64,000 bases of DNA from Dehalococcoidia bacterium. GTDB taxonomy: Bacteria; Chloroflexota; Dehalococcoidia; Lucifugimonadales; UBA3495. The stretch spans positions 1,126,748-1,190,747 of the forward strand of contig OY843611.1 in NCBI GenBank assembly GCA_963692995.1, in the 5' to 3' direction. Positions 1 to 22,984 of the stretch are shown here, one piece after another. The notes under the pieces were generated by a model that searched no databases, had not been told where the DNA came from, and saw nothing but the letters and a program-made list of their open reading frames with translations. The position numbers and the translations under genes are program-made. Every line of letters starts with the position of its first letter. Positions within the stretch are counted from its first letter, which is position 1.

Positions 1-14
1 GGCGGGCCGCCGCC

Positions 15-5084: not shown

Positions 5085-5141
5085 TTCCTTCTCTCTTACG
5101 GCTGGGGGCAGTCTGGCTAGGCTTACTCTTCCCATTCTCCG

Positions 5142-5411
5142 TTAGCGATGGCCTGGCATCGGTACTCGTGGTCTTTCATAAACGCGGCTACGTCCCGTCT
5201 GTTCCATCGCTCCTTGGACCACCATTGTCCACAGATGAGACAGGTCACTCTCCATACGGTGATTTGCTGGGACGAATGCCTGTCCGTGCTCGGTGATAAT
5301 GTCCTGTTCTTGCCACGTCATGCGTCTGCTCTTTTCCCGGTGCGTTTGCACTGCGTTCAGCCGTTCTTGCAGGGTGTAGATTACGTGGTCGGCGGGGGCG
5401 CTTTGGAGCAA
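5142..5411 (-). CDS. Hypothetical small protein (start uncertain: TTG 5411 or ATG 5321)
   Basis: ORF track. Normal composition. Confidence 0.45.
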   Translation of the reverse strand: MLQSAPADHVIYTLQERLNAVQTHREKSRRMTWQEQDIITEHGQAFVPANHRMESDLSHLWTMVVQGAMEQTGRSRVYERPRVPMPGHR

Positions 5412-5465
5412 GCCGGGGCATTATTCATCCCGTGCTGGCGGGCGGGAGGGTTCCGGCGTTGGCGT

Positions 5466-5735
5466 TCACAGCCATCTTTTCAGGTAGCCGCCGTGGGGCT
5501 GGCGGTAAGCGCCGTGCCGGTCGCATTGGGCGGTGATCTTGACTGGGCTGCCGGCTTTTTCAGCAGGGAAGCCGGGGCAAGGGAGCATGGTGATGGGGAT
5601 GCGGATGGCGCAGTTCTGGCAGATTGGCCGGTTGCGGCAGCCTTTGGGGTCATGGAACCAGAGGTTCGTATAGTGATTGGCCTGGGTGATGGGGTGTTTG
5701 GCGTCGGGGGTTGAGAACCCGCAATTGACTGGCAT
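5466..5735 (-). CDS. Cys-rich small protein
   Basis: 89-aa ORF with ATG start and several Cys (CRNRPICQNC...C...C). Confidence 0.55.
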   Translation of the reverse strand: MPVNCGFSTPDAKHPITQANHYTNLWFHDPKGCRNRPICQNCAIRIPITMLPCPGFPAEKAGSPVKITAQCDRHGAYRQPHGGYLKRWL

Positions 5736-5825
5736 GGTGGCCTCGGCGGTATGGTGGGGAAGTTGGCGTGATAAAGGGCGCCGGACGGGAAGGTCGGGCG
5801 CCCTGGTTTTGGCGGGTTGGCGGGT

Positions 5826-6650
5826 TCAGAAGATGGGGTTGGGGCTGTTGCAGGTGGCGATGAGGAAGCGGGAGAGGTCGTGCAGGTGGGGGGAATTATT
5901 GGCTTGTTGGCGGATCATTTGAGTGAGGTATTTGGTGGCGACGGTACGCGCGGCGGGGTTGGCGATGGAGTTGATCCAGCGGTTTTGGGCGCAGGCGAGG
6001 GCGGCGTCGGCGAGGAGTTGGCGTTCTTGCTCGTAGGCGGTGAAGGTCAGGAGTTCGGCTTCGGTGGATTGGGATTGGGGGCAGTTGGGGTTGTTGGATT
6101 GGGGTTTTTTGATTTTGACCTGGTATTGGTAGTTGCCGGGAGGTGGCCGGTCTCGGTAGTAGGTTTTGGGGGTTTCGGCGATTTGGGCATAGGGTTGGTC
6201 GGAATGGGAGCGTCGGGAGAGGGTGTAGGTGGCAGGTTTGGGGAGGTCAGCGCTGTGTTGAGGCTGGTAGTCGGGAGCGGGGTAGTAGTGGTTGTTGAAG
6301 TAGGGGTAGGGGAGAGTTCGCCAGGAGAGGTTGATGGATTGGGTGATGGGGTTGGATTGATGGGCAAGGATGGCGATGTGGTTATTGCAGGATAGGTCTT
6401 GGACTTGGGAGGCGGTGGCATAGGTATCGTGATGGGAGCTGGGGTGTGGGGCGCCGGGGGTGCTGGTTTGGTATTGAGCGCCGCCGCCGGATGGGGCGCC
6501 GCCGCCGTCGTCTTGGGCGTGGGCGGGGGCTGGGTTAGCGGTGGTGATGATGATGAGGGCGGTGAGCGCGGCGAGGGTAGCGATAGCGGCGATATTGCGG
6601 ATTCGGGCGGGGATGCGTTGCTGGGGGACGGGGGCGGTGGGATAGGGCAT
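5826..6650 (-). CDS. Secreted or membrane-anchored protein of unknown function
   Basis: 274-aa ORF. AAAGGAG RBS. N-terminal hydrophobic segment IAAIATLAALTALIIITTA followed by AHA. Confidence 0.7.
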   Translation of the reverse strand: MPYPTAPVPQQRIPARIRNIAAIATLAALTALIIITTANPAPAHAQDDGGGAPSGGGAQYQTSTPGAPHPSSHHDTYATASQVQDLSCNNHIAILAHQSNPITQSINLSWRTLPYPYFNNHYYPAPDYQPQHSADLPKPATYTLSRRSHSDQPYAQIAETPKTYYRDRPPPGNYQYQVKIKKPQSNNPNCPQSQSTEAELLTFTAYEQERQLLADAALACAQNRWINSIANPAARTVATKYLTQMIRQQANNSPHLHDLSRFLIATCNSPNPIF

Positions 6651-7043
6651 AGATTGGCTCCTTTTGTTGCGGGGTTGTTTTAGCCCCGGTGATTTGGCGG
6701 TTGAGATAACGTAAGGGTTGGCGTGGGAAGGGCGTTTTTAGGGGCGTATGGGCGGGTGAGCGGCGTTTTGATGCGGTTGGCGCGGATTGGGTGGTCTTTG
6801 GGGGATTGTTGGGCGTTTGGGGGCGTGTTTTGGTTTCGCGCCGGCATCCCGGCGAATGCCGGGAGCCGACGGGATTGGGGCGTCGGGGTTTGGAATGCCC
6901 CCGCGGGCCGGGTAGGCTGGCGGGGGCGGGAGGCGCGCTGGGGTTGGGGAAGGGGGGAACCCCAGGGCGCTTGAGTTCAGGGCAGCAGGGGTTGCCGTTG
7001 CCGGTTTGGTTTAGATAGCGCGGGGTGCGGTGAAGGGGTGGGT

Positions 7044-7475
7044 TCAGCGGCGGTAACGGGCGGGTTGGCGTTGTTGCCGGAGTTGGCGTTGTTGCTGGAC
7101 CTGGGCGACGGTTTTGTAGTAGCCGTCGTCGTCGAACCAGAGGGTTTCGATAAAGCAGTAGGCGCGGGAGGTTGACATGGCCTGGGCGCAGGCGATGCAG
7201 TTGAGGCTGGAGATTTCGGCGTAGCGGCTGAGGATGGCGCGGGGCTGTTCGAGTTGGGGTTGGGCGACGTCGATGGCGTGGTCGTCGAGGCGGTGTTCGC
7301 AGAAGGTGCAGGGGATTTGGTCGGCGATTTGGCGGAGGGTGTCGTAGTTGGAGCGGCGGGCCTGGGCGGTTTGTTGATGTGAGCCGTGCATGGCGACCCA
7401 GGCGCGGCTGAGTTTGGCGATTTCTTCGCGGTTGGTGATATGGCCTTGGGGGCCGGTTTTGAGTTCGTGTTGCAT
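7044..7475 (-). CDS. Hypothetical protein with CxxC pairs
   Basis: 143-aa ORF containing CTFCEH and CIACAQ. Confidence 0.6.
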   Translation of the reverse strand: MQHELKTGPQGHITNREEIAKLSRAWVAMHGSHQQTAQARRSNYDTLRQIADQIPCTFCEHRLDDHAIDVAQPQLEQPRAILSRYAEISSLNCIACAQAMSTSRAYCFIETLWFDDDGYYKTVAQVQQQRQLRQQRQPARYRR

Positions 7476-7502
7476 AGTGTTCGGGTCGCTCCGGTGGGGG
7501 GT

Positions 7503-10500
7503 TCAGAAAAGGGCGAGTTGGACGGGTTCGGGGAATCTTTCGAGCGTGGGCGCGGGTAGGGGCGCGGGCCGGGGCCGTGGCGCCGGCGTCGGCGTCGGCG
7601 TCGGAATAGGTTGGGGCTGGAAGGCTTGCTTGATGGGATCGGACACCAGCGGTTCGTCGGGGTCGTCGGGTGGTTCGTTGCGATTGAGGAGTTCCCTGAG
7701 TTCGGCTTCCAGCAGGGTTTCGGTAGGCGACTGGGCCAGCTGGCCGCGGCGTTCTTGTTCCAGTTCGCGGTAGAGTTCGTTTTCCACGATGTCGCTGAAC
7801 TTGTCGGCGGCGGGGTTCATCATGGAGAGGCCGTTGCGGGCGAGTTCGCCGTAGATGGCGCGGCTGGCGTCGCTTTTCTGGGCGACTTTGCGCAGGGCCT
7901 GTTCCTGCATGGTGCCGGCGTAGGCCAGGTAGTGGATGCGGATGGGCTGGGTCTGGGAGATGCGGTTGGAGCGGGCGGAAGCCTGGTCGGTGGTGTACAT
8001 GCTGTATTCGATTTCTTGCCAGATGATGGTGGGGTAGTCGAGGAGGTCGATGCCGGTTTCGACGGCTTTGGGGTTGACGATGATGCCGTCGTGGTGGCGG
8101 GCCTGGTCCTGGAACCATTGCATGCGTTTTTCGGGTTTGACGCGGGCGGCGTCCATGTAGGCGGTGGTGATGTGGTGTTGCTGGAGGATGGCTTGGGTGC
8201 GTTGGACGGTGGAGCGGGTATTGGTGTGGGTGCAGTAGATGATGAACTTGCGGTTTTGGTCTTTTTCTTCCTGGCAGATGCGGATGAGTTCGCGTTCTTT
8301 GGGGTAGGTGTGATTGGCGGGGAGCGGGGGCAGATTGATGATGGTTTCGCCGGTGGAGTTGGAGGTGGGAGCGGTGCCTTGCCAGCAGTTTTCGGGGTAG
8401 GTAAGGAGTTCCTGGAGCATGGTGGCGAGGGTGGGGGCGTTGCCGTGGTTGAGTTCTTGTTTGACGGTATCGCGGAGGGCTTGTTCGAGGGCTTGGTAGG
8501 CGGAGCGTTGGGAGTAGTTGGGGGCTGGGGCGGCGGCGGCTTCGGCGTGGGCTTGGGCGTGGGCTTCAGCGGCGGCGTCGGCGGCTTCGGCGATTGCTTG
8601 GGCGGCAGCGGCGTCGGTGACCGCTTGGGCGGCAGCGGCGTCGGTGACCGCAGTAGCGACGGCGGCCGCGTCGGCGTCGCTGGCCGCGGTGGCTTCGGCG
8701 GCGTCCTGGGCGTCGGCGGCGCGGTTTTGGGCGATTGCAGCGGCGGCTTGAGCGTCGGCGGCAGTTTCGGCCACGGCTTCCGGGGCGGCCAACGCCGTGC
8801 CGGGCGTGTCGTCCAGCGGAACCAGGGTGGGGATGATCTCCGGCGGCGGCAGTTGGCGGCGCGGATCGTCCGGGGGCAGCGCCTGGATCAGTTCGGGCAG
8901 GGTGGTGAAAACGGAGCAGTAGAGGATGTGGTTGAGCAGGCCGGGGTGAAAGCCGGGGATTTCTTCCTTGCGGCTCTGCTGCTGGCGGGCGGCGCTGACG
9001 GCGCCGGTGCGGCCGCCGTCGGTTTCGGGCCGGGAGCGCCAGACGGTGCGGTAGCGTCCGTACTGGTTGATGAACTGGCTGCGCTGGTCCCAGGGGAAGT
9101 TCCGTTGGAAGCCGGGGAGCAGGCGTTGCAGCAGGTAGAAGACGCTGCTGGCGCAGCCGCCGAGGAAGGTGCCGGTCAGTCCGATGGCGCGCTGGCTGCG
9201 CTGGGCCAGGCGGCCGGCGACTTCGCCCCGTGCGCTGGCGTTGGACTTGTACTGGTGGGCTTCGTCCAGGATCAGCAGGTCGGCCCAGCGGGGATGCTTT
9301 TGGGCGATGTAGTCTCCGATGGGGCAGCGCCAGCGGGTTCCGGGCGGGCGGGTGGGGGCTTTGAGGTGAAGGCGGCAGCCGGGGCAGCGGGCGTCGCGGC
9401 GGTTTTTGGCGTTTTCCCAACGGGCGTCGTCGGTGAGGACGCGCCAGCAGCGGGGGCAGGTCTCGCCGCGGAAGTTGCGGGCGACGGCCAGTTGGAGGGA
9501 GCCGTCGGGCCGTTCGTGGCGGTAGAGGCGGTGGGGGCCGGCGGCGCTGACGTGGCGGGTGACGCTGGCTACGGCCCAGCCGAGGCTGGCGGTGGTTTGG
9601 GGCAGCAGCAGCCAGAGGGGGGCGTCGGGAGCGGCGGGCAAGGTCAGGGCGGATTCCAGGTCGCCGTGGGCGGAGCGCAGGCTGGGATCGGGCGCGGGAC
9701 GGTTGGAGGGCTGGCGGATGCTTTCGATAACGCGGACTTTGGCTTGGGGGTTGCAGTCGGTGATTTCGCTGATCCAGCGGGGGATGATGTGCCGGGGGAG
9801 GATGACGATGACGCGGGCGCAGTCGGCGCCGGCGGCGGCGGCGACGGCCATCCAGGTCTTGCCGGAGCCGGGCTGGCTGATGATGAAGCCGCGGCGGTTT
9901 TTGCGGAGGTGAGCGGCCAGGGCGACGGCGTTGGCGCCTTGCTTGCCGATGGGCGGCTTTTTGAGCCGGGCGATGCGTTCCCGGATGGGGCGATAGCGGG
10001 GTTCCGTGGGGATAACGGTAGGCGGGAAGAGGTCGGTCATTCGGGCTTTCAGCGGCCGTCGCCAGGCGTGGAGGAAGTCGCGCAGGGCCTCCGGGTCTCC
10101 GTCGTCCACGGTGGTGATTTGGCCGTTGGCGAGGTTGAGGTAGCGGATGCTGTTGGTGAAGTTTTCGGTTTCGGTGGCTTTGCGGTGGGGGATTTCGGTA
10201 ATTTCGGCGACTTTGCGGATTTGGCCTTTGAGCAGGATGGGCGGGAGTTCGCCCTGGGGATCGGTGATGGGGTGGTTGTCCAGCTGGCCGCTGGCGAGGA
10301 GTTGCAGGGTGTGGCCGGAGTTGAGGGGCTGGAGGGTTGGCGCCGGCGGGGAGTGGCCCTGGGGCCGGAGTTGGGCGCGGGTATCGCCGCTGGCCCAGCA
10401 GCCTTCGGCGGCGGCGGCGCGGCTGAGGGTTGCCGGGTCGTATTCGCGGCGGCGGGCGATTGGGCGGGGCTGGCCGGGAACGCTGCGGAAGGCGGCGTTC

Positions 10501-11270
10501 AGCTGGGTGTGCAGGGGATAGCGGAGCAAATCGACGGGCTGGCCGAGGAAGGGGAAGTCTTCCAGGGGGCCTTCGGCGAACTTTCGCAGGGTGCGGGCGG
10601 TGTAGAAATCCCGCTGTTCGGGGTGGTTGAGGGCGGTTTTGCGCTGGCCCCAGAGGATGATCTGCCGGTATTGGTCGTATTCGGGGTCGGGAAAGCGGGC
10701 AACGCCGACGTTGTGGAAGTTGTTGGCGAGGGTAGTGGCGTCGCGGGCCAGCTGCTCGATGGGTATGACGTAGAGCAGCAGTCCGTCGGGGCGGAGCGCG
10801 GGCAGGCAGGCGCGGAGGAAGCGGCTTTCCAGGCGGTGGTCGCCGGTGTCGTGGTTGGCGGGGGCGTTGTCGGCGTCCCAGTCGTAGGGCGGGTTGAGCC
10901 AGAGGGCGTCGGCGCTTTCGGGCTGGAGGGCGACGTTTTCCAGGTCGGCCTGGAGGACGTGGTGGAGGTTATGGCGGGCGGCGGCGGCGCGCTCGCTATT
11001 GAGTTCCACGCCGTGGGTTACGACGCGGTGGGGGTAATTGGGGCAGGACCGGCTGATTTGGCGGGTGATGGCGTTGGCGAAGGCGGCGACGGCGTGTCCT
11101 TCGCCGCAGCAGGGGTCCAGGAGGTGGAATTCGGGAACGGGAGGCGGCTTTTGCGGGTCGAGGCTGCGGTGGTTCCCGGCGCAGCGGGCGAAGAGGGGCG
11201 GTTCCAGGAGTTTGATTACGGGCAGGGGGGTCGGGTAGTAACCGGATTTGGTCCAGCCTTGCGGTCGCAT
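7503..11270 (-). CDS. Fusion protein: N6-adenine-type DNA methyltransferase plus SF2 (SNF2/DEAH-like) helicase
   Basis: 1255 aa. MTase motifs DPCCGEG (motif I) and LNPPYDW (motif IV). Helicase motifs GSGKT, LILDEAHQYK, ETGIDL and QASARSNRISQ. CPRC...CPGC zinc ribbon. Ala/Asp-rich insert with a 27-bp tandem duplication at 8598-8651. Confidence 0.9.
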   Translation of the reverse strand: MRPQGWTKSGYYPTPLPVIKLLEPPLFARCAGNHRSLDPQKPPPVPEFHLLDPCCGEGHAVAAFANAITRQISRSCPNYPHRVVTHGVELNSERAAAARHNLHHVLQADLENVALQPESADALWLNPPYDWDADNAPANHDTGDHRLESRFLRACLPALRPDGLLLYVIPIEQLARDATTLANNFHNVGVARFPDPEYDQYRQIILWGQRKTALNHPEQRDFYTARTLRKFAEGPLEDFPFLGQPVDLLRYPLHTQLNAAFRSVPGQPRPIARRREYDPATLSRAAAAEGCWASGDTRAQLRPQGHSPPAPTLQPLNSGHTLQLLASGQLDNHPITDPQGELPPILLKGQIRKVAEITEIPHRKATETENFTNSIRYLNLANGQITTVDDGDPEALRDFLHAWRRPLKARMTDLFPPTVIPTEPRYRPIRERIARLKKPPIGKQGANAVALAAHLRKNRRGFIISQPGSGKTWMAVAAAAGADCARVIVILPRHIIPRWISEITDCNPQAKVRVIESIRQPSNRPAPDPSLRSAHGDLESALTLPAAPDAPLWLLLPQTTASLGWAVASVTRHVSAAGPHRLYRHERPDGSLQLAVARNFRGETCPRCWRVLTDDARWENAKNRRDARCPGCRLHLKAPTRPPGTRWRCPIGDYIAQKHPRWADLLILDEAHQYKSNASARGEVAGRLAQRSQRAIGLTGTFLGGCASSVFYLLQRLLPGFQRNFPWDQRSQFINQYGRYRTVWRSRPETDGGRTGAVSAARQQQSRKEEIPGFHPGLLNHILYCSVFTTLPELIQALPPDDPRRQLPPPEIIPTLVPLDDTPGTALAAPEAVAETAADAQAAAAIAQNRAADAQDAAEATAASDADAAAVATAVTDAAAAQAVTDAAAAQAIAEAADAAAEAHAQAHAEAAAAPAPNYSQRSAYQALEQALRDTVKQELNHGNAPTLATMLQELLTYPENCWQGTAPTSNSTGETIINLPPLPANHTYPKERELIRICQEEKDQNRKFIIYCTHTNTRSTVQRTQAILQQHHITTAYMDAARVKPEKRMQWFQDQARHHDGIIVNPKAVETGIDLLDYPTIIWQEIEYSMYTTDQASARSNRISQTQPIRIHYLAYAGTMQEQALRKVAQKSDASRAIYGELARNGLSMMNPAADKFSDIVENELYRELEQERRGQLAQSPTETLLEAELRELLNRNEPPDDPDEPLVSDPIKQAFQPQPIPTPTPTPAPRPRPAPLPAPTLERFPEPVQLALF

Positions 11271-11311
11271 AAGGGCGGTTCTCCTGGGGATGGGGTTTTA
11301 TTCGGCGGTGG

Positions 11312-11908
11312 CTGCGTAAATCAGGGCATTAGGTTCCAAATTGGGCCGGTTGGCGTGGGAGCGGTAGGTCCGGGCGGAGCAGCGATTGTTCGGGGGCGTC
11401 TGCGTAAATGTGGGCATCAGGTTCCGGGGGCGTTATGCTGAAAGGTGGGCGTCAGGTTCCAAATTGGAAAGATTGCACCCGGTGTGAAGTTTCCAATTTG
11501 GGGAGCGGTTGTTCGGGAGCGTCTGCGTAAATCAGGGCATTAGGTTCCGAGGGCGTTGTGCTGAAGCGTGGGCATTAGGTTCCAAAGGGCGGTACTTTAT
11601 TCGGGGATGTCTGCGTAAATGTGGGCATTAGGTTCCAGGGGGATGCCTGCTGAAGTGTGGGCATTAGGTTCCAAATTGGAAAGATTGCACCGGGGGCGAA
11701 GTTTCCGGTTTGGGGAGTAGTTGTTCGGGGGCGCGTGCGTAAATCAGGGCATCAGGTTCCGGGGGCGTTGTGCTGAAGTGTGGGCATCAGGTTCCAAAGG
11801 GCGGTATTTTGTTCGGGGATGTCTGCGTAAATAAGGGCATTAGGTTCCGGGGGGATGCCTGCGTAAGTGTGGGCATTAGGTTCCGGTTGAGTGTGGGCAT
11901 TAGTTTCC
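11312..11908. repeat. Iteron-like array: 12 copies of a ~24-26-bp motif ending GGGCAT(T/C)AGGTTCC, organised in a ~211-bp higher-order unit
   Basis: Copies start at 11312, 11400, 11436, 11523, 11559, 11611, 11647, 11735, 11771, 11823, 11858 and 11887. Two subtypes (GCGTAAAT.. and GCTGAAG..) alternate as dyads. Embedded inverted repeat CCAAATTGGAAA(11459-11470)/TTTCCAATTTGG(11490-11501). Confidence 0.9.
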
Positions 11909-12453
11909 AGTTGGAGATTGGCGGGTTTGAGGAGTTGGGGTTTGGCGCGGCGACGGGGCGGGAATTCGGGGATTGGCGGCGTTGGGTCCGGGGCCGGAGC
12001 GGGGTTGCGGCGCGCGGGCGGGCGGCTCTGGGCTTGCGGTGTCGCCGGGTTGGGCCGGGCCGGGCTGTTGCATCCGCTGGGCTGGGGCAGTCTCCGGCCT
12101 GGTTACGCGGGGCTACACTGCTGGGCCAGCCGCCGCGCCGCCCGCCTTTTCGGGGGGCGGCGGGCCAGGTCGGGCTGACCGGCGTAACGTAACCCCCGTA
12201 CCCCTCGTAACTCTCGTTGCCTCCTATATTGCGTAGGCCGATGTCGGGGTTTTCTCTCAGTTGGGTGGACGGGGGCGTTAGGGGCGGGGGCGATGTGGCG
12301 TGAGCCGCTTCGCCGGGAGGGGTTTCCCATCCGGCTCTACGGCGGTTCTTGGTGGCTTTGGCGCCCATGCTTGCGTAATAGGGGTGCGCGTTCTTTGATG
12401 GCAAAGAATGCGCGGGCATGGTCATCCCTGATTTCGTTGTTCAGATCTCGCCC

Positions 12454-12858
12454 CTAGAACGGTTTGTCGCCGTGTCGGTATGGTCTTTGTTCGTTGTATT
12501 CCATCTTGTCGTACAACGCTTGGCCGACGGGCAATTCCTCGTGGTGGGCAAAGTCCAGCAAGCGGATGATAGCGTCGGCGCATTCCAACGCCATTTCTCT
12601 GCAAGTTTCCTCACTCCATAGGTCATTTTTCTTTTCGGCATTTCGCGCAACTTCCATCATTTCGCACAACTCGCTAACTACCATCCCGACAACGTGCGGG
12701 ACGGTCAGTTCCGTATCGCGCCAACCTTTTTCGCAAGCAATGCGATTGCTGTGGTCAGCAATCTCGTCCAATGCGATAATCCATTCCGTTTTCGGACATT
12801 GTTTGTTCGTCGGTTCTTTCATAATCCTTGTCCATTCTCGCTCTTCGCACTTTCGCAT
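12454..12858 (-). CDS. MazG-like nucleoside triphosphate pyrophosphohydrolase (start 12858 or 12822)
   Basis: EIADHSNR...SELCEMMEV...ECADAIIRLLDFA pattern typical of small all-alpha MazG/NTP-PPase proteins. The gene sits in a visibly lower-GC patch. Confidence 0.7.
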   Translation of the reverse strand: MRKCEEREWTRIMKEPTNKQCPKTEWIIALDEIADHSNRIACEKGWRDTELTVPHVVGMVVSELCEMMEVARNAEKKNDLWSEETCREMALECADAIIRLLDFAHHEELPVGQALYDKMEYNEQRPYRHGDKPF

Positions 12859-12947
12859 TCACCGCGAACGGCGGATGTTGTGTCATTCCGTGAAATTGCG
12901 GATATTTTGGTGTAATAACGCCCCAGGGACTGCCCCCAGGGGGCTAA

Positions 12948-13214
12948 TCACTGCAATATGCAGGTGTCCATCGCGTCATCGTATGCGTCAGCAGCGGCTT
13001 GAGCGTCAGCAGCGGCTTGAGCGTCAGCAGCGTATGACTCCGCGCAGTAGGCGGCGCACTCGGCCGCATATGCGGCTTCGTCGTCGGCGGCGTACAGTTT
13101 GGATAGCCGGTCGGCGTGAGCGCGGGCAGCGACGGCGACGGCGCGGGCGTTGTCCGCCATTGCTGCCCAGTCGGGCGCCGGGTCCGGAGCCGGGTTGCGG
13201 TCGATGGCAGGCAT
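12948..13214 (-). CDS. Hypothetical Ala/Asp-rich small protein
   Basis: 88-aa ORF. AAGGAG RBS before ATG 13214. Confidence 0.45.
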   Translation of the reverse strand: MPAIDRNPAPDPAPDWAAMADNARAVAVAARAHADRLSKLYAADDEAAYAAECAAYCAESYAADAQAAADAQAAADAYDDAMDTCILQ

Positions 13215-13349
13215 TGTGTACTCCTTATCAAATCCCCTTTGCGGTTACACACCGCAGTAGCCTTCGCATTCGTTGATAAACCCGTTCACTTCTATCCGCT
13301 AGTGGGGCCAATCAGGGATGGAATGGGGAGTATCCGGGGGGGGGGGGCA

Positions 13350-13748
13350 TCATCCGATAGTCCGGCTGGCTACCAGGTCTTCCATCCGGCTGCGCCGGAC
13401 GTCACGGCTTCCGCCATCATCGCGCACTGCCAGCCCGGCTTTGGCAAGTTCCTCGCCGAGGGATTCCGTGTATCCCAGGATCTCAACCAGCGGACGGCCG
13501 TATGCGTCAGAGTCGCCGGCCGATCTGGCCCATAGCCCCCACTGGCTCCGGCACCAGTCCTTGACAAACTCGGTGGCTTCGTCTGCCATCGCCTTTTCTG
13601 CATCGCTGACGCCGCGGCGTTCCGGGGTGTCATACCCGTTTAGCCGCACGACGGTTCTTATGCTGACGTTGTAGCCGAGTTCAATTTGGCACTCATAGGT
13701 GTCGCCGCTCGCCACGCGGATGATTCTTGCCGGATTGGTTACGTCCAT
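13350..13748 (-). CDS. Staphylococcal-nuclease (SNase/thermonuclease)-like nuclease
   Basis: VRLNGYDTPE and DAYGRPLVEI resemble the SNase R-L-x-G-I-D-x-P-E and D-x-Y-G-R motifs. Confidence 0.7.
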   Translation of the reverse strand: MDVTNPARIIRVASGDTYECQIELGYNVSIRTVVRLNGYDTPERRGVSDAEKAMADEATEFVKDWCRSQWGLWARSAGDSDAYGRPLVEILGYTESLGEELAKAGLAVRDDGGSRDVRRSRMEDLVASRTIG

Positions 13749-13821
13749 TGCTGTTTCTCCTGTGATACGGGGGTTCGGCTGCGCCGGTGGGCCCTCCTCA
13801 GCCCTCTGGCGCCGGCCGTCC

Positions 13822-15423
13822 TCAGCCCTTCCGGCTGAGCGGCGTTCCGCTGCCCAGCCGGTCGCCGGTCTCCGCCGCTACCAGCCGGTTCGCCGCCCGC
13901 GCCAGCAACTTCTGCCGGGCGCTGAGAAACTCCGGGTAACGCGGGGTCTGCCACAACCTCGGGTCGGCCGGTATCAGGTGGCTCTCCAGCAGCCCCGGAT
14001 CGGACTGGGCCAGTTGGTTCAGGCACTCGGCGGGGGACTTGCCGGTCAATGACCGGGCCGTGCTGACGGTCAGGATCGTCGCGTTGCCGATGGCGTGGGG
14101 ATCGGCGTCGGCGCTTTTGCCGAAGGTTTGCCGCAATTCGTCGGCGGAAAAGATGCAATGCGTGGTCAGTTGCTCCGGCGCGTACCGTCGCAGAGGCAGC
14201 CGGGTCAGCCAGTCCCGGGTCGCCGGCCCTTTCAGCAGCGCGTGCCAGACGATGTAGTAGCTGCTGCGGTGATACAGTCCGAAGCGGAACTGTTCCGGCT
14301 CGGCGAAGGTCTTGCCCAGGCGGGCTTCCCGGCGGGCTTGCAGGGCCGCCCAGGGCGGGTCGCTGGCGTCGAGGGCGCGCAGATCAGCGTCCAACGCGCT
14401 GGCGTATCCGCTGCGGTAAGGGCCGCCGGCCACGGCGCGGAGCAGGTAGATCATTCCTTGTCGCCGGTCCGTGGGATCGCGGAAGGCGCCGTTCTGTTGG
14501 CTCAGGCGCCGGGCCAGCACGCTGAGGGGCGCGGTGGTCAGCGTCCGGGGATCGCTGAGGCCCAGCTCGGCGGTGATGGCGTCGGCAATGGCGGCGAAAG
14601 TCTGCTCGGCCTGGGCGAAGGCCAGGGCCAGTTGCCCCGGCGACGGGTCGGCCAGCGCCAGGCCGTGGGGCCGCAGCCGGCCGGTGTGAATGGCCGTCAT
14701 GGTGCGGATGATGGTGTCCTGGGTAATCACCCGTTCCAGTATGCCCTTGCGGTGCTGACGGATCAGCCGGCGGAACTCGGTCAGGGCGTCGGGCCAGCGG
14801 GCGGCGATCCAGGCCATGGCGATGTCGTTGCGGGTCAGGGGACGGCCGCTGGTGTTGATGCGCCGGAAGATTTCCAGCACGGCGGCGCTGTCCAGTTCCG
14901 GGTCGATTTCCTGCACGGGCAAGGCGCGGTCCCGGATGCTGTGGAGGCGGCTGAGCCGCAGCAGGCACTCGTCCTGTTGGGCGGCGAAGTCCCGGCTTGG
15001 GGCCGAGCGCTGGCGCCAGGCGGCCAGGGCGGCCCGGTCGTCGGTGAGGACGGCGGTTACGGGGAGCCAGCCGGGGCGGCGTTCCAGTTCGCCCGGTTTG
15101 GGGTAGCCGAAAATGTCGCGGAGGGGATCGAAGCACAGGTCGGTGGGCGGCGGGGCGGTTGCGTCGTCGTAGAAGGGCGGCGCGTGGCCCAGAGCGGCGG
15201 CGTAGATGCTGGCGAGGCGCTGCTGTCCGTCCACGATGAGGTATTGGGGGCCGCCCAGGGCGGGACGCTGCCGCCACAGGGTGATTATTCCGATGGGATA
15301 GCGCCGGTAGAGGGACTCGATCAGTTCCAGGGCCCGCTGGCGGGACCAGGCGTAGCCGCGCTGGAAGGGGGGCAAGCGGATGGAGCCGTCGTGCATTCCG
15401 GCGATGAGTTGGCTGATTTCCAT
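13822..15423 (-). CDS. GmrSD-family DUF262/DUF1524 nuclease (type IV restriction-like)
   Basis: N-terminus PPFQRGYAW...YPIGIITLW...LIVDGQQRL (DUF262). C-terminus THCIFS...IGNATILT...SLTGKSP (His-Me finger/DUF1524-like). GGAGG RBS. Confidence 0.85.
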   Translation of the reverse strand: MEISQLIAGMHDGSIRLPPFQRGYAWSRQRALELIESLYRRYPIGIITLWRQRPALGGPQYLIVDGQQRLASIYAAALGHAPPFYDDATAPPPTDLCFDPLRDIFGYPKPGELERRPGWLPVTAVLTDDRAALAAWRQRSAPSRDFAAQQDECLLRLSRLHSIRDRALPVQEIDPELDSAAVLEIFRRINTSGRPLTRNDIAMAWIAARWPDALTEFRRLIRQHRKGILERVITQDTIIRTMTAIHTGRLRPHGLALADPSPGQLALAFAQAEQTFAAIADAITAELGLSDPRTLTTAPLSVLARRLSQQNGAFRDPTDRRQGMIYLLRAVAGGPYRSGYASALDADLRALDASDPPWAALQARREARLGKTFAEPEQFRFGLYHRSSYYIVWHALLKGPATRDWLTRLPLRRYAPEQLTTHCIFSADELRQTFGKSADADPHAIGNATILTVSTARSLTGKSPAECLNQLAQSDPGLLESHLIPADPRLWQTPRYPEFLSARQKLLARAANRLVAAETGDRLGSGTPLSRKG

Positions 15424-15460
15424 GTTGGGGGCCTCCGGTTTCCGGCGGGCGGGTTGACGG

Positions 15461-16147
15461 TTATTCCGGCGCGGCGGCCAGTTCGCCGGCGGCCAGTCGC
15501 TGGCACAGCGCTTCTTGCAGTTCCGTCCAGTTCACGTGGGCTTGCCAGCCGTAGAGTTTGCCCGGCGCGGCCCGCCACGCGGAGAGGGGCGTCAGCCATT
15601 CCTGTTCGACGCAGTAGTCCCAGATGGCTTGATCCCACTGGGGCAGGGCGATCAAGCCCGTCTCCCGGCGCAGCCGTTCGCCCAGCAAGCGCGGGCCGTG
15701 TTCCGGCGCTTCGCTGAACAGCCAGCCGGAGTAGTTTTCGTCCGCCGCGGCGTCGGCGGGCGGGGTGAAGTTGGCGCGGGACGGCGCTTGCCCTGGGGGC
15801 ATTAGCAGCAGATGGTGTTGCCCCGGCAGCGCGGTCAAGGGCCGCTGCCAGCGTTGGGCGCGGGTTAGCGGCTGCAAGTTCAGGAAGGTTTTCCAGGGCG
15901 CCGCGCCGCCGCCGTCGGGGTAAAGGGTTCCGGTATGGCTGGGGCCGGCGGCTCCGAAGTGGCTGCGCAGGCTTTTGATGGTGGCGGTGGGGCCGATTAC
16001 GGAGAGGAAGGCCAGGTTTGAGCCGTCCAGCGCCCAGGCGTCGCAGAGGGCGCTGACGCCGGCCACGGCGAAGTTCCACGCGACGGCTGGCTCCCCCTGG
16101 GCAGTCTCGGCAGTTGCGGTGGCAGTTGCGTTCTCGTTCTCGTTCAC
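15461..16147 (-). CDS. Hypothetical protein (228 aa), operon partner
   Basis: GTG start overlaps the upstream stop as GTGA. No motif recognised. Confidence 0.6.
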   Translation of the reverse strand: MNENENATATATAETAQGEPAVAWNFAVAGVSALCDAWALDGSNLAFLSVIGPTATIKSLRSHFGAAGPSHTGTLYPDGGGAAPWKTFLNLQPLTRAQRWQRPLTALPGQHHLLLMPPGQAPSRANFTPPADAAADENYSGWLFSEAPEHGPRLLGERLRRETGLIALPQWDQAIWDYCVEQEWLTPLSAWRAAPGKLYGWQAHVNWTELQEALCQRLAAGELAAAPE

Positions 16148-16320
16148 CGGGCGGGCCTCCGCAGGGTCGCGGCCTTTTCCGTTGCGTCGCCGCCGAAGCG
16201 GGCCAGGCCCAGCTGGGTCAGCAGGTCCCGGGGCGCCGGGCTTTCGTTAATCAGCGGGACAATGGCGCGGCGGGGCGCCGTGGTCGCCGGGTGGTGGTGG
16301 GCGTTGCCAGGAAGTTTCAT
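16144..16320 (-). CDS. Small protein (58 aa), not in ORF track
   Basis: Hand translation gives MKLPGNAHHHPATTAPRRAIVPLINESPAPRDLLTQLGLARFGGDATEKAATLRRPAR. AAAGGAG RBS. Stop is coupled to the next start. Confidence 0.45.
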   Translation of the reverse strand: MKLPGNAHHHPATTAPRRAIVPLINESPAPRDLLTQLGLARFGGDATEKAATLRRPAR

Positions 16321-16372
16321 GTGAGTAGTCTCCTTTTCCGGCGCGGTGGCCGGGCAATCTGTCGGGTAGATG

Positions 16373-17509
16373 TCAGAAGGGCGGCGGGTCGGCTACGGCC
16401 GCGTCGTCGGCAGCGTTGGATGGGGGGATTACGGTGGCGCCGGCGTTCAGCAACGCCTGCCGCGCGTCGATGCTGGCGCAGTCCAGGTTGGACAAGTCCG
16501 CGCCTTGCAAGTTGGCGTTACGCAGGTTGGCGCCTCGCAAGTTGGCGTTACGCAGGTTGGCGCCTCGCAAGTTGGCGTCCCGCAAGTCCGCGTTATGCAA
16601 GTTGGCGCCTCGCAAGTCGGCCTGCCGCAAGTCGGCGTCGTCCAAGCGGGCGTAGCTCAGGTCGGCGTGGGCGGCGTCGGCCCGGCGCAGGTTGGCGCTC
16701 AGCAAATAAGCTCCGCGCAGGTCGGCCTTGGTCAGGTCGGCCTCAATGAGGGTAGCGTCGTTGAGCTGGGCGCCTCGGAGCAGGGCGTTGCGCAGGCTGG
16801 CGTTCTGCAAGTCGGCGTCGTTGAGGGTAGCGGCCCGCAGATTGGTCCGGGCCAGGCTGGCGTAGGTCAGGTCGGCGCGGTAGAGGATGGCCTTGCTCAG
16901 GTCGGCGCAGCTCAGGTTCGCGCTGGGGAGGTTGGCGTCGGTCAAGTTGGCGCAGTTCAGGTTGGCGTGGGGGAGTTTGGCGTCGGTGAAGTCGGCGCCG
17001 GTAAGGTCCGCGTCGGTCAAGTTGGCGGCGGCGAGGCGGGCGCTAGACATTTTGGCGTGAGCGAGGTCGGCGCCGGCCAGGTTGGCGTCGGTCAGGTCGG
17101 CGTCGGGCAAGTCGGCGCCGGCTAGTTTGGCGTGGGGGAGGTAGGCGTGGGAAAGGTCGGCGCCGGCGCCGTCGGCGCTGGCTAAGTCGGCGTTGGTGAG
17201 ATTGGCGCTGGTCAAGTCGGCGCCGGGCAATAGGGCGTCGGACAAGTCGGCGCCGGCCAGGTTGGTTCCGGTCAAGTTGGCGTAGGGCAGGTCGGCGCCG
17301 GCTAGTTTGGCGGCGGTCAAGTCGGCGCAGGTCAAGTCGGCGCCGGAGAGTTTGCCGCTGGTCAAGTCGGCATGGGACAAGTCGGCGCGGGTCAAGTCGG
17401 CGCCGGAGAGGTTGGCGTCGGTTAGGTCGGCGTCGGACCAGTCGGCGCCGTAGCGGTTGAGGTTGGTTAGGTTCGCAATCGCTTGGGCTGGCTCATTGGC
17501 GTTGTTCAT
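16373..17509 (-). CDS. Pentapeptide-repeat protein (378 aa)
   Basis: Almost the whole protein is consecutive A(D/N)LxX units. ATG 17509 preceded by AAGGAG. It overlaps the upstream gene by 17 nt. Confidence 0.9.
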   Translation of the reverse strand: MNNANEPAQAIANLTNLNRYGADWSDADLTDANLSGADLTRADLSHADLTSGKLSGADLTCADLTAAKLAGADLPYANLTGTNLAGADLSDALLPGADLTSANLTNADLASADGAGADLSHAYLPHAKLAGADLPDADLTDANLAGADLAHAKMSSARLAAANLTDADLTGADFTDAKLPHANLNCANLTDANLPSANLSCADLSKAILYRADLTYASLARTNLRAATLNDADLQNASLRNALLRGAQLNDATLIEADLTKADLRGAYLLSANLRRADAAHADLSYARLDDADLRQADLRGANLHNADLRDANLRGANLRNANLRGANLRNANLQGADLSNLDCASIDARQALLNAGATVIPPSNAADDAAVADPPPF

Positions 17510-19268
17510 CTGGCTCCTTGGCTCCGCAAGATGGGTTGGTCTCCGGAACTTTTCCCGCTGGCTGGTCGGCGGCATTGGACGGGTCGGCGTGGGTTTGGGC
17601 CGGGGTAGCGGCGGCGGCTTCGGCTTCGGCGGCGGCTTCCGCGCCTTCCGCCTGCGTTTTTGCCAGCCAGTGCCGGATTTCCGCCGCTCGGCCCGTGGTC
17701 TCCAGCCACTCCCGCAACCGCTCTCCCAGGGCCTGGGCCTCCTCCGACGATAATTTGAGGCAATAGCCCACCACCGCCGCCAGCGCCGCCCCGGCCATGG
17801 CGTCGCCGTCCTGGGGCAGCCAGATCATCCGATGCCAGGAGTTGACCGCCGCCAGCGGCTCCGTCAACCGCGGGGAACGGGGGAAGAAGTTTCTTGACAA
17901 TTCCCGGAATTCTAGGGCAAAGGCGGCCCGATCACCTTCCAGCAGCCGCGTCGCCAGCGCGCGCATCTGGTCGGAATACTGTTCTGAGGTCATTTCTTCC
18001 GGCGGGTCGTGGTGGGGCCAGTAAGCGGCGAAGAGCGTGTCGCGCAGCGCGGCTACGTCTCCGTCGTAGCCCTCGGCCAGCCAGACGCACTCGTCATAGA
18101 GTTCGCCCAGGAAGGCGGCGTTGGCGGGAGTGACGCATTCGCCGGTGGTTCCGTCGGGCGCCGCAACCTTGACCCGGATAGTGATGGACTGGGCGCGCCG
18201 GTGGATTTCTTCCGGCCAAAGTTCCCGCGTGGGCAGGCCATGGTTGCGTGTCGGGTCGTATTCCAGCTTTTGGCTGTCCGGGCCGACGATGGCGATGCCG
18301 GCTACGGTCAGGCTGGGCGGCGGCTCGGTTGGCGCCGGATTATCCGGCCGGTTCCGCCACTTTGGACGTTGTTCCACCGGAGCGTAGCCCGCGGCGGGAT
18401 TGGCGTAGAGCGCCATGGCGAGGGTGTAGTCCAAGCAGTATTCTTGGGAGTTGGGGTTGGAATTGTCGATGTGGGCGGGCTGGGCTGGCGCGTTGACGTA
18501 GATGTCCGGGGCTTCCCGGTCGGCCCGCCAGCCGGTCCAGTAGGGACGCTGGCGGATGGCGGCGTAAGTCTCCGCCGATGGTTGGGTTTCGGCTTCGGCG
18601 TTGTCGTCGCCGGTCGCCGACCGGATTTGAGTCCACACCCAGAGTTCCTGCGCTTCCTGCTGTTCTTGCAGCTCCGCCCAGCCGTCGGCTTCCAGGATGC
18701 ACCACGCCCGGCCCGAATGGCTGACGAAACTGCACGGCAAGTCGGCGCGGTCGTTCCAGTCAATGTTGTATTCAATGCGATAGCGGCGGGCGCCGCTCCA
18801 GTGGGGATAGGCCGGCTCCGGTTCGGGCAAGTGGATTTCCCGCGCCATCTCGACGCCGGGGCCGGAACCGGCGCTTTGGAACAGTTCGTAGATCACGCCC
18901 TGGCAGCGCAGCAACTGGCCGGTCGTCGCGCTGTTCGGCAGCCGGCGCTGCGGAGCGGTTCGGGGCTGTCCGGCGATGCCGCCGATGACGCCGACTTCCA
19001 ACGCCCGCGGGCGGTCGGGAAAGGCCAGGGTTTTTATTTGGTCGCCGTTGATTCGGACCGGCGCCGGGTAGTATTCCAGCATCTGGGCCAGCCGGTCGGC
19101 GCCGACGGGGGCCGTGGTAGTTTGGGTGTCGCTGCTGATCACAAACTCGTCGCCGGCCGGGGCGATGATCAGGCGCAGGGGCTGTCTGGGCCGGTCGGGC
19201 TGCTGCGGCCAACGCAAGAGCCGGTGCAAGCCGTTCAGGGATGCGATGTTGGCGGTGGGACTGGTCAT
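17493..19268 (-). CDS. Large hypothetical protein (591 aa), first gene of the operon
   Basis: ATG 19268 preceded by AAGGAGG. In-frame upstream ATGs at 19304 and 19367 lie in repeated leader copies. No motif recognised. Confidence 0.7.
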   Translation of the reverse strand: MTSPTANIASLNGLHRLLRWPQQPDRPRQPLRLIIAPAGDEFVISSDTQTTTAPVGADRLAQMLEYYPAPVRINGDQIKTLAFPDRPRALEVGVIGGIAGQPRTAPQRRLPNSATTGQLLRCQGVIYELFQSAGSGPGVEMAREIHLPEPEPAYPHWSGARRYRIEYNIDWNDRADLPCSFVSHSGRAWCILEADGWAELQEQQEAQELWVWTQIRSATGDDNAEAETQPSAETYAAIRQRPYWTGWRADREAPDIYVNAPAQPAHIDNSNPNSQEYCLDYTLAMALYANPAAGYAPVEQRPKWRNRPDNPAPTEPPPSLTVAGIAIVGPDSQKLEYDPTRNHGLPTRELWPEEIHRRAQSITIRVKVAAPDGTTGECVTPANAAFLGELYDECVWLAEGYDGDVAALRDTLFAAYWPHHDPPEEMTSEQYSDQMRALATRLLEGDRAAFALEFRELSRNFFPRSPRLTEPLAAVNSWHRMIWLPQDGDAMAGAALAAVVGYCLKLSSEEAQALGERLREWLETTGRAAEIRHWLAKTQAEGAEAAAEAEAAAATPAQTHADPSNAADQPAGKVPETNPSCGAKEPDEQRQ

Positions 19269-21604: not shown

Positions 21605-22984
21605 CTACCCCCCGTCCGGCCCCTTCTTCCGCTTCGGACGCTCCAGCGACTGACCCATTTCCAGCAGCAGCGTCTCCCCCCGCGACAGCACCCGCCGCCG
21701 CTGCCGCAAGCGTCCGTCATTGTCCAGAATCCGCGTCAAACTCGGCGGCAGTGGCTCCGTCGGACGCCCGGCCAGCTTGCAAACGTGGCCGTAACTGAAC
21801 TCCTTCCGGTTCGGCCCCCACTGGCTGTCCGCCGCCGCAAACGCCACCCGCGCCCCCGGATACGGCCCGTTGAACGTCTCCCGCTGCAACTGATCCGCGA
21901 CGTCTTCCTCAATCCGCTCCACCAGCGACGGCGCAAAGGGCAGCAAGCAGTAAATCCGTTGCTCGCCGTCGGCCGGCGGCGGATCGAAATACCCCGTAAC
22001 CTTCTCGTCGTGAACCGGCGCCGCGATGCGCCAGATCGCTTCCTTGACCGACTGCGCCACCATGACGCAAGCCTGGCGCTCCTCGTGGCTGATCATTCCG
22101 TCCGCGTAACTTCGCTTGGCCGACCGACCGGCTTGATACGGCAAGTCCGCCATCTCCAGGCTCAGCCAGCGGCTCTCCCGCAAGGCGAACATCGACGCCG
22201 TTTCGGCCAATGTCCCCGACTCCGGACGAAACCGCCAGCACGCTTCCACCGCCGCCAGCCCCAGCGCGACCCGCTCGTCCAGCGCCGTCAGCGACCCCGC
22301 CGTCCGGTTGTCCGTAAGCAGCGATGGCGTCGTTCCAATGACGCTTTCCGCCTCGGACCACAGGTCGTAGTCCCGAATGTTCTGCTCCAGCGCCCGTTCC
22401 GCCGGCAGACAATAGACCGGCAGAAACCGGGTCTGGGGAAAGCGGCTGGCGACGTGTTCGTGGATCAAGTGCCCCAGCCGGGCGTGGCCGCCGAAACCCA
22501 GCCACTCGATGATGAGCTGGGGCCGGGAGCCGATCTCGTTGGCCCGGCGTTCCATCTCGTTCACGATCCGTTCCACGTCCCGCTCAATCGCCCCGTAGCG
22601 ATCCATGAAAAAGTTGGGCTGGCGCAGAAAGCCCTCGGACAAGGGCAAATACTCCGGCACGACGCTGAGGCGCTCCAGACCGGACTCCTGGGCCGCCTGA
22701 CGCCACAAGCGGATGTTCGTCGCGTTGCAGTCGTACACCACCAGCGACTGGATGCGGCTGCGACAGCCCAAGGCGGTCATCTTCCGCGCCCACAGCGCGC
22801 TGCGCTGCATTCCGGTGGAACCGACCGAGAGGGATACGATGGGCGCCGGCTCCCGGTCCGGCGCGCCGGCGTCCACGCCGTTGAGCTGGGCCGGTGACGC
22901 GCCCATGTAGTAACGGTTCGCCGCCTTGGGCGCGCCGGCCCAGCTCCGGGGCAGCGCTGATCGGGGGTTCAGTCGCCAGGGCAT
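21605..22984 (-). CDS. Candidate divergent tubulin/FtsZ-superfamily (TubZ-like) protein with degenerate nucleotide-binding loops
   Basis: 459 aa. Ordered motif series: SVGSTG (res 53-58), YDCNATN (84-90), EGFLRQP (117-123), LGFGGHARLG (162-171), LPVYCLPAE (188-196), LLTDN (222-226). This matches the T1/T3/T4/T5/T7 order and TubZ-like spacing. The RBS AAAGGAG lies inside the end of the upstream gene. Confidence 0.45.
   Translation of the reverse strand: MPWRLNPRSALPRSWAGAPKAANRYYMGASPAQLNGVDAGAPDREPAPIVSLSVGSTGMQRSALWARKMTALGCRSRIQSLVVYDCNATNIRLWRQAAQESGLERLSVVPEYLPLSEGFLRQPNFFMDRYGAIERDVERIVNEMERRANEIGSRPQLIIEWLGFGGHARLGHLIHEHVASRFPQTRFLPVYCLPAERALEQNIRDYDLWSEAESVIGTTPSLLTDNRTAGSLTALDERVALGLAAVEACWRFRPESGTLAETASMFALRESRWLSLEMADLPYQAGRSAKRSYADGMISHEERQACVMVAQSVKEAIWRIAAPVHDEKVTGYFDPPPADGEQRIYCLLPFAPSLVERIEEDVADQLQRETFNGPYPGARVAFAAADSQWGPNRKEFSYGHVCKLAGRPTEPLPPSLTRILDNDGRLRQRRRVLSRGETLLLEMGQSLERPKRKKGPDGG

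Follow-up and report, generated by a model that had tools for sequence, protein, structure and literature searches.

In a 64,000-nt stretch of the genome of a Dehalococcoidia bacterium (GenBank assembly GCA_963692995.1, contig OY843611.1, positions 1,126,748 to 1,190,747 of the forward strand; hereafter the window), an array of 12 direct repeats lies immediately upstream of a gene encoding a methyltransferase-helicase. Both belong to a mobile element that has integrated into the chromosome and of which the window carries the right-hand 36 kb. From the sequence we infer that the array, which is non-coding and specific to this lineage, is a cluster of predicted sites for a sequence-specific protein recognising a 14-bp core. 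As a possible rather than a probable function, we tentatively favour regulation in cis of the downstream methyltransferase-helicase gene, for which the array would act as a lineage-specific operator or roadblock.

A direct-repeat array with a constrained core

The array occupies positions 11304..11913 on the + strand and consists of 12 units with the 14-bp core GGGCAT(T/C)AGGTTCC. By motif count, the GGGCATYAGGTTCC core is present in 10 exact copies and two copies with one mismatch each (GGGCGTCAGGTTCC at 11447 and GGGCATTAGTTTCC at 11895), all 12 on the + strand. The cores start at positions 11324, 11412, 11447, 11535, 11570, 11623, 11659, 11747, 11782, 11835, 11871 and 11895, and together they span 11324-11908. 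When up to two mismatches were allowed, the window contained 13 matches, as compared with a mean of 1.15 and a maximum of 4 in dinucleotide shuffles. This count confirmed the 12-copy array described in an initial annotation, about one match being expected by chance. The 13th match lies outside the array and is a single two-mismatch site at 50593; beyond this singleton, no further copies of the core, direct or inverted, were found elsewhere in the 64-kb window. In the data examined the array did not behave as a dispersed genome-wide repeat, an alternative for which the initial annotation had left room.

The units fall into two subtypes, a CTGCGTAAAT-type and a TGCTGAAG-type, and are laid out as five dyads, with a solitary unit at the proximal end and a truncated one at the distal end. 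The dyads start at 11392/11400, 11515/11523, 11603/11611, 11727/11735 and 11815/11823. Adjacent units are 35-36 bp apart within dyads, and the spacing from dyad to dyad alternates between 123 and 88 bp; the successive core-to-core spacings are 88, 35, 88, 35, 53, 36, 88, 35, 53, 36 and 24 bp. Five dyads had been described before, each made up of the two subtypes. We recovered all five, but the second unit of the fifth dyad (CTGCGTAAGT) is a hybrid or A-like unit and not TGCTGAAG. Likewise, the count of 12 units stands, with the qualification that the twelfth is a truncated unit placed only 24 bp past the eleventh.

The dyads are themselves organised in a higher-order repeat. Tandem Repeats Finder (TRF) reported a period of 212 bp at 11389..11884 (+ strand; 2.3 copies, 88% matches, score 750), in agreement with the overall period of 211-212 bp noted earlier. 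Each 212-bp copy consists of a dyad, a palindromic linker, a second dyad and a short linker. An extra leftmost copy, nearest the gene, is degenerate (63%) and lies at 11313-11524. The 43-bp palindromic linker at 11459..11501 reads CCAAATTGGAAAGATTGCACC-C-GGTGTGAAGTTTCCAATTTGG. It contains the previously recorded inverted repeat CCAAATTGGAAA-N19-TTTCCAATTTGG (11459-11501) and a perfect palindrome, TTCCAA-A-TTGGAA, that overlaps the end of one core and is confined to the two linkers. A second palindromic linker at 11671..11713 is a decayed copy, 88% identical to the first and with AA changed to GG in its 3' arm. In the window, TTCCAANTTGGAA occurs only at the palindromic linker and at 11669.

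The core is far better conserved than its surroundings. It carries 1.88 of 2 bits of information per position, versus 1.15 in the 22 bp upstream of it, and cores are 86-100% identical between units whose flanks are just 30-50% identical. Since the last 212-bp duplication, positional homologues have accumulated mismatches at 5 of 84 core positions versus 28 of 199 positions in the rest of the array (one-sided Fisher p = 0.036). Because the core is conserved where the flanks have diverged, it is probably recognised in a sequence-specific manner; unequal crossing-over homogenises whole units, and the core therefore appears to be under selection of its own. The core is asymmetric rather than palindromic (3 of 7 symmetric positions), and the cores show no helical phasing (R 0.15-0.36 at all helical repeats tested, 10.0-11.3 bp). 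The general view of the array as a protein-binding platform, put forward in the initial annotation, is thus supported by the constraint on the core, whereas the specific functions proposed with it do not fit the context, as discussed below.

The array spans roughly positions -34 to -640 relative to the methyltransferase-helicase start codon. In the leader between array and ATG (11271..11303, - strand; the ATG is at 11270), a reading of the sequence found a Shine-Dalgarno-like AGGAG at 11285-11281, 10 nt from the ATG, and this ribosome-binding site is all that the 34 nt between the proximal unit and the ATG contain. Since the array abuts the start of the gene, any local promoter must lie inside or beyond it, and read-through transcripts must cross it.

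The whole gap upstream of the gene is non-coding, as had been proposed, but its true end is at 12453 (1,183 bp), at the stop codon of a MazG-like gene, and not at 12420. Between about 11340 and 12330, GC content does not vary with codon phase; in the flanking gene it is 0.82-0.93 / 0.42-0.52 / 0.72-0.78, as expected at 65% GC. An open reading frame (ORF) of 212 amino acids (aa) at 11787-12425 is of low complexity and has no family match. Taken together, the flat codon-phase GC and the missing family matches rule out a coding reading of the gap. The array region forms a local GC trough (51-58% versus ~68% in the flanks; minimum 100-bp GC 0.51). Beyond it lies a spacer that is G-rich on the + strand (11914..12035), has 65-80% GC and is unique to the window. 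It is followed by a conserved GC-rich intergenic element (12036..12190, - strand); GC is 65-80% over 11900-12200. The remaining non-coding DNA up to the MazG-like stop codon (12191..12453) includes a hairpin with a 12-bp stem (12386-12413) and no T-run after it.

Comparison with related loci

We fetched 211 loci from GTDB genomes, JGI metagenomes, IMG/VR and look-ups. The start of the methyltransferase-helicase gene could be located in 183 of these, 156 of which held enough upstream sequence for the gap to be measured. The gap was short (median 3.5 bp, 90th percentile 116 bp), which argues that the long leader in the window is an addition specific to this copy of the gene. At two or fewer mismatches, the core occurred in the first 168 loci as scattered chance singletons and never in clusters. 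The arrays that were met in the 211 loci were two CRISPR arrays, coding repeats and, in one locus (L179), an unrelated 50-bp x 5 repeat 6.5 kb away. The exact dyad pattern gave 0 matches in IMG/VR, GTDB representative genomes and JGI metagenomes. A blastn search of the 1.15-kb region against phage and plasmid records found no match, and exact-protein look-ups of the window proteins and of P0127 (a tubulin-like protein, see below) brought up no array-bearing alleles on record.

In four loci (L002-L005), the methyltransferase-helicase homologue is 37-48% identical to that of the window and is found with SSB, UvrD, SNase, ParA and type IV secretion system (T4SS; VirB4- and TraG-like) genes, that is, in a conjugative-element setting. 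The gaps upstream of the gene are just 3, 40 and 225 bp, and there are no tandem arrays. The gene directly upstream is in all four cases a homologue of window ORF 15461-16147. This adjacency suggests that the window gained ~4.2 kb between two genes that were once neighbours.

Closer relatives were found via a 94% identical MazG-like protein. Three such loci (L006, L007 and L008) can be followed from window position 21.5 to 12.4 kb at 74-94% nucleotide identity; homology then jumps from ~12059 to ~6133, so that the array and the methyltransferase-helicase are missing together. In L006, homology at the edge of the gap stops at 12427. The stretch absent from the three loci is a window-specific block of ~5.9 kb (6134..12058, - strand) that comprises the G-rich spacer, the array, the methyltransferase-helicase, a 143-aa CxxC ORF (7044-7475) and ~900 further bp. 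The right junction of this block falls within the GC-rich element 12036-12190, of which ~110-150 nt are conserved. Copies of the element lie at 11513-11584 and 13744-13890 in L006, at 7539-7610 and 9770-9916 in L007, and at 1514-1585 in L008. In L006 and L007, the first copy abuts a start codon and the second follows a tRNA-Thr gene and precedes a DUF499/DUF7680/DUF1156 system. Across the related elements, the copies thus lie upstream of different cargo modules. The GC-rich element may be a module-boundary, promoter or recombination element.

A different rearrangement was found in L169, L172 and L173. Here, a 5.3-kb deletion joins window position 14176 (in GmrSD) to 8880 (in the helicase), with 87-94% identity on either side, and creates a GmrSD_N::Helicase_C fusion (L169 16810-18972; L173 12358-14520; L172 17359-19928). 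The fusion implies that the ancestor of these three loci had a methyltransferase-helicase at this place; the array region is gone. The fusion locus lies beside ilv/leu genes in the three assemblies, which also lack the replication module (window 34305 joined to 22168) and appear to be decayed remnants.

Hence the array was absent from all close relatives found via the MazG-like or the tubulin-like protein (L006-L008, L169 and L172-L174), and two different rearrangements account for its absence. Judged from the sequences compared, this is an orphan array that is linked to the methyltransferase-helicase block, lies at a hotspot of rearrangement and does not represent a conserved core function of the element family.

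Possible functions of the array

We favour a cis-regulatory role because the array lies 5' of the start codon, is present or absent jointly with the gene and has a core that is separately constrained. Binding of a protein, the regulatory role and the direction of regulation are all inferred from these features. A sequence-specific protein would fill up to twelve sites and form a long nucleoprotein complex. The occupied array would block read-through from the upstream GmrSD-SNase-MazG operon, repress a promoter inside the array, or both. The methyltransferase-helicase would then be silent in the resident element and be switched on transiently wherever the regulator is missing, as in a newly entered cell or upon induction. 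ECF-sigma (extracytoplasmic function) promoters have the form AAC-N16/17-CGT, and seven units read GGAAC-N16-CGC on the gene-sense strand; we take this loose likeness as a lead only.

Dedicated operator regions of this general kind occur in conjugative plasmids, the CUP/ArdK regulon of IncN pKM101 being one example. Establishment and anti-restriction genes are also placed under upstream repeat or operator regions by the Reg576 operators of p576 (PMC6294495) and the EGeRS of the pLS20 family (PMC8708921). Like Reg576 and EGeRS2, the array consists of non-coding repeats directly upstream of an anti-restriction or establishment-type gene in a mobile element; in those systems a short asymmetric motif in direct orientation is bound cooperatively, presumably for transient expression after entry (PMC6294495, PMC8708921). 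They differ in having 2-4 heptamers around a strong, defined promoter, in recurring upstream of several operons of the plasmid and in that the repressor has been identified, whereas the array has 12 copies of a 14-bp core over 600 bp and no recognisable sigma-70 promoter, and its core was found at one locus in the 64-kb window. The EGeRS1 regions of the pLS20 family resemble it in another way, being 400-600 bp of non-coding DNA upstream of establishment genes, with no strong sigma-A promoter and with possible internal duplications (PMC8708921). However, EGeRS1 is dominated by inverted repeats and a predicted complex secondary structure and is found in several copies per plasmid, whereas the array is a single copy of direct repeats without significant structure as single-stranded DNA (ssDNA).

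Several observations weigh against a regulatory role. No array was found upstream of the methyltransferase-helicase homologue at any of the 183 loci with a located start, nor at any of the 211 loci scanned for clustered 11-mers; since no homologue locus has such an array, the comparison lends no support. No sigma-70-type promoter was predicted on either strand of the gap (11271-12453). No candidate regulator was identified; the 143-aa CxxC ORF had no Pfam or PHROG match, and its single-sequence structural model (predicted local distance difference test score, pLDDT, 41) was unusable. Twelve sites over 600 bp are far more than in typical operators. Finally, the block could have brought in the array as a passenger from a donor replicon in which it played a different role.

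This last point leads to the main rival, namely that the array is a relic or passenger, functionless now, that once served as a cis site (iterons, centromere or transfer accessory) in a donor replicon or that arose by recent tandem amplification. We regard this as rather unlikely, although much would fit: the array is unique to one element and lies in a hotspot with two independent deletion or replacement alleles in relatives, its higher-order structure points to recent unequal crossing-over, the gene-proximal higher-order copy is degenerate (63%), and its strong strand skew matches the backbone of conjugative-type relatives. However, the core has been shielded from substitution relative to flanks and linkers, which is difficult to account for unless it was under selection, if only until recently. 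A replication origin of the iteron type, as suggested in the initial annotation, or a copy-control locus, bound by an initiator such as the primase-polymerase of the element, is unlikely. Iteron arrays (P1 incC/incA, RK2 oriV, F oriS, lambda ori) usually have 17-22 bp units at a regular spacing of ~22 bp and adjoin an initiator gene, an AT-rich unwinding element and DnaA boxes. Like them, the array repeats an asymmetric motif with a conserved core many times in one orientation and lies in non-coding DNA; it coincides with a local dip in GC, and the element encodes a primase-polymerase and several helicases. Yet the array does not have the unit length or spacing of iterons (its spacings are irregular at 24, 35, 53 and 88 bp, and its cores are unphased, R <= 0.36), nor an adjoining initiator, as the primase-polymerase gene (28371-30176) is 16 kb away. 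There is no DnaA box within 1 kb and none in 11271-12453, the nearest being a one-mismatch box at 10007 in coding sequence, and the minimum GC of 51% means that there is no AT-rich unwinding element at the array. Furthermore, the accessory block that holds the array has no counterpart in the closest relatives, and an AT-rich inverted repeat beside the primase-polymerase gene (27444-27486) is a more conventional candidate. The least credible of the readings that we considered is an origin of transfer (oriT) or a region recognised for packaging, with the repeats serving as sites for accessory proteins of the relaxosome or for a small terminase. Some oriT regions, such as that of IncN R46, do hold many short direct repeats together with inverted repeats, and the gene family occurs in conjugative-type elements and on 37 predicted viral contigs; but no relaxase, T4SS, terminase or structural genes were seen in the visible 36 kb of the element, which also tells against the packaging site proposed earlier, and the array is absent from close relatives.

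A partition centromere (tubC/parC/sopC-like), serving the tubulin-fold protein of the element or another segregation system, appears very unlikely to us. Known plasmid centromeres include F sopC (12 x 43 bp), R1 parC (10 x 11 bp) and pBtoxis tubC (7 x 12 bp); they adjoin the par or tub operon, with the adaptor encoded beside them, and tubC sites are located directly upstream of tubR-tubZ. The resemblance lies in the number of direct repeats and in the tubulin/TubZ-like fold encoded by the element. The initial annotation had pointed to a TubZ-like protein 10 kb away, and this is right at the level of the predicted fold: the model of a 459-aa protein (21605..22984, - strand; pLDDT 84.9, predicted template modelling score 0.83) matched tubulins and Bacillus cereus TubZ in a Foldseek search of the PDB (4ei7_A at rank 6, E ~1e-10, template modelling score ~0.5). 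The protein has no Pfam (tubulin models included), PHROG or PDB sequence match. In its family the G-box is degenerate, with a nearly invariant GFGGHA instead of GGGTGS/TG, so its GTPase activity is uncertain. The tubC-like centromere suggested with it did not hold up. The array lies ~10 kb downstream of the tubulin-like gene, with ~10 genes in between, and no adaptor is evident: the gene directly upstream of the tubulin-like gene (22989-23216) would encode a 75-aa CxxC...CxxC zinc ribbon without family match and apparently not a TubR-type winged helix. No non-coding repeats precede the tubulin-like operon, and seven loci with a tubulin-like homologue or fragment (including L169, L170, L171, L172, L173 and L174) have no such array. 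Moreover, the element bears an integrase and is chromosomal, and thus may need no partition. In a bolder version, the 459-aa protein would belong to a new, highly divergent segregation system of the tubulin superfamily in Chloroflexota mobile elements, and the array would be the centromere or landing pad of that system, acting over a long range. An adaptor, perhaps one of the small zinc-ribbon proteins of the element, would couple the cores to filaments of the 459-aa protein, with a cis site away from the operon, unlike in known TubZRC systems. We found no evidence linking the tubulin-like protein to the array, and we consider this whole version highly improbable. A transcribed structured RNA or an ssDNA element (an ssDNA promoter, single-strand origin or EGeRS1-like leader) acting in transfer or rolling-circle replication is quite unlikely. 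The RNA of the + strand, the template of the operon, folds to -241.8 kcal/mol (z -4.2) versus -112.5 kcal/mol (z 0) for the - strand; relatives of the gene are found in conjugative-type elements with T4SS genes, and the template strand of the backbone is G+T-rich, as expected if it is single-stranded at times. Against this, neither strand folded better than its shuffles with DNA parameters (z -0.8 and +0.5), the adjacent coding DNA also folds well on the + strand (z -2.0), and the + strand is G/T-rich throughout the backbone. A search of Rfam 15 was negative at the gathering threshold and, with E relaxed to <= 5, gave no relevant match. A 9-bp hairpin of the unit is intact in 4 of 12 units and shows no covariation; its compensations are G.U-only, as C-to-T mutation bias on a G/T-rich strand would also yield. 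No hairpin arm holds a -35/-10 pair, and the repeats are direct and not inverted. The structured RNA raised in the initial annotation does not fit these results well, there being no Rfam match and no conservation of hairpins between units.

Several other types of element were compared and rejected. With its repeat unit of ~36 nt, the array is superficially like ToxI-type (type III toxin-antitoxin) and CRISPR arrays. A ToxIN-like system was ruled out by the irregular spacing and by the absence of a ToxN/AbiQ-type gene downstream, where the - strand has the methyltransferase-helicase and the + strand the antisense of the MazG-like gene; PADLOC found no ToxN match. In a CRISPR array the DNA between repeats consists of unique spacers, whereas here the inter-core DNA is itself repeated with the 212-bp period, and there were no cas genes among the annotated ORFs. 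The true CRISPR arrays of two Chloroflexota genomes (L042 10418-11177 and L039 14164-14398), which directly follow a methyltransferase-helicase homologue or are close to one, look quite different. Frpo/ssi ssDNA promoters are long imperfect hairpins of the template strand with -35 and -10 elements in the stem (PMC11541004). No sigma-70-like hexamer pair was found in 11271-12453, where the only hairpins have 21-nt arms and the ssDNA z-score is -0.8, and a Frpo-like promoter was rejected. A transposon end with Tn7-like multiple binding sites was excluded by the lack of inverted core copies in the window. A GC-skew boundary near 12.05-12.1 kb, considered as a sign of an origin, was dismissed since the same drop occurs in the array-less L006; it is due to a foreign low-GC MazG/SNase cassette. 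Finally, an 18/36-bp repeat at 24439-24706, considered as an alternative tubC, is coding (an AETPAPAEV linker).

The host element and its wider significance

The element carries a tyrosine integrase (35249-36436) and a CI/LexA-like helix-turn-helix (HTH)-S24 repressor (34573-35298); ordinary chromosomal genes start at ~36.5 kb. After the integrase and repressor, a leftward (- strand) series begins with small HTH proteins and continues with a PD-(D/E)XK nuclease, an SNF2 helicase, the primase-polymerase, a UvrD-like helicase, an Hjc/VRR-NUC nuclease and the tubulin-like gene. These are followed by a pentapeptide-repeat protein, GmrSD, an SNase-like protein, MazG, the array gap, the methyltransferase-helicase and small ORFs that could not be annotated. 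The methyltransferase-helicase (7503..11270, - strand; 1,255 aa) consists, according to Pfam, of an N-terminal DUF6094 methyltransferase with an NPPY motif and a SNF2/ResIII-type helicase, and it resembles anti-restriction or establishment genes of mobile elements. A search returned 70 homologues, and PADLOC gave partial matches. Almost all named homologues are from Chloroflexota, mainly Dehalococcoidia, Tepidiformaceae and Anaerolineae.

In the direction of transcription, the gap is directly preceded by the gene for the MazG-like nucleotide pyrophosphatase (12454..12858, - strand; phrog_3301, E 1e-20). This gene is part of a cassette at 12100-13750 with MazG-like, 88-aa and SNase-like ORFs that, like the gene itself, has a low GC content (48-57%); the cassette is neutral in skew and foreign to the backbone in composition, and its versions in L006 and L007 hold additional SNase paralogues. 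PADLOC matches among the neighbours were limited to a GmrSD-like protein (HEC-05) and partial helicase or methylase matches, and no known defence system with a non-coding RNA component was found among them. Amid these defence and anti-defence genes, a 400-aa protein (16373-17575, - strand) is almost wholly built of pentapeptide repeats (Pfam E 2e-85); it may act as a mimic of DNA.

Further repeats were seen in the window. The AT-rich inverted repeat at 27444-27486, which lies between the UvrD-like gene and that of the primase-polymerase, has 16-bp arms (ACTTAAGGAAGAAAAA and TTTTTCGTCCTTAAGT) that enclose a T-run, and is flanked by two one-mismatch DnaA boxes (27575-27583 and 28330-28338); it may be a more conventional origin of the element or a terminator. 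The exact 12-mer GGCTATCTGCAA occurs at 23680-23691 and 24201-24212 (- strand), ~35-55 nt upstream of the likely starts of two consecutive genes of the tubulin operon; it may be a promoter or operator motif, although there are just two exact copies. Two adjacent genes (24261-24776 and 24804-25223, - strand) both encode a Pro/Ala-rich repeat (AETPAPAEV, 18/36-bp period) as well as a 'PPPWPLERW' motif; one product has a zinc ribbon at its C terminus, and the other includes an Hjc/VRR-NUC nuclease domain. Tandem repeats of 21/42 bp at 1458-1654 and 19933-20112 are both coding, in a coiled-coil 283-aa ORF (1001-1852) and a 293-aa ORF (19464-20345; repeat kept in L006 and L169), respectively. In the host part, a thiamine pyrophosphate riboswitch (RF00059, 60.1 bits) lies at 63274-63386 (- strand), upstream of the gene 61683-63278.

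In metagenomes the tubulin-like family comprises at least 50 clusters; IMG/VR contains none. One homologue (L170) is encoded beside ArdC, ParA and DnaB-like genes in a mobile element; another (L171) is encoded among housekeeping genes and is chromosomal. Going by the modelled fold, the family may be an undescribed branch of the tubulin superfamily in Chloroflexota. A second full-length 459-aa tubulin-like protein, P0127, at least 90% identical, is encoded on the source contig, which indicates that the source chromosome probably carries a second copy of the element.

The element also shows an extreme strand asymmetry. In window positions 1-20000 and in the whole of L002, L004 and L006, the + (template) strand is G/T-rich. 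The GC skew of the backbone is +0.2 to +0.53, with C/A-rich mRNAs, and that of the host part of the window is about -0.05. The skew holds along the full 23 kb of related conjugative-type loci, even where the orientation of genes flips in L004. The asymmetry fits an element of which one strand spends time single-stranded, in transfer or in rolling-circle replication.

Direct-repeat protein-binding arrays are well known in mobile elements. The array described here fits no defined family, and its organisation in dyads and a higher-order repeat is unusual. Since it is an orphan, present in one element only and in an uncultured lineage, no comparative inference or definition of a family is possible, and its general value is limited. 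If it is a multi-site operator or roadblock for an anti-restriction-type gene, it would be another case of mobile elements timing the expression of their establishment genes, in a poorly studied phylum, and an unusually large one, with twelve sites in a higher-order repeat. Two of the side findings may matter more: a widespread divergent tubulin-fold family in Chloroflexota, present in mobile elements as well as chromosomes, and a family of integrated elements with an extreme asymmetry in strand composition.

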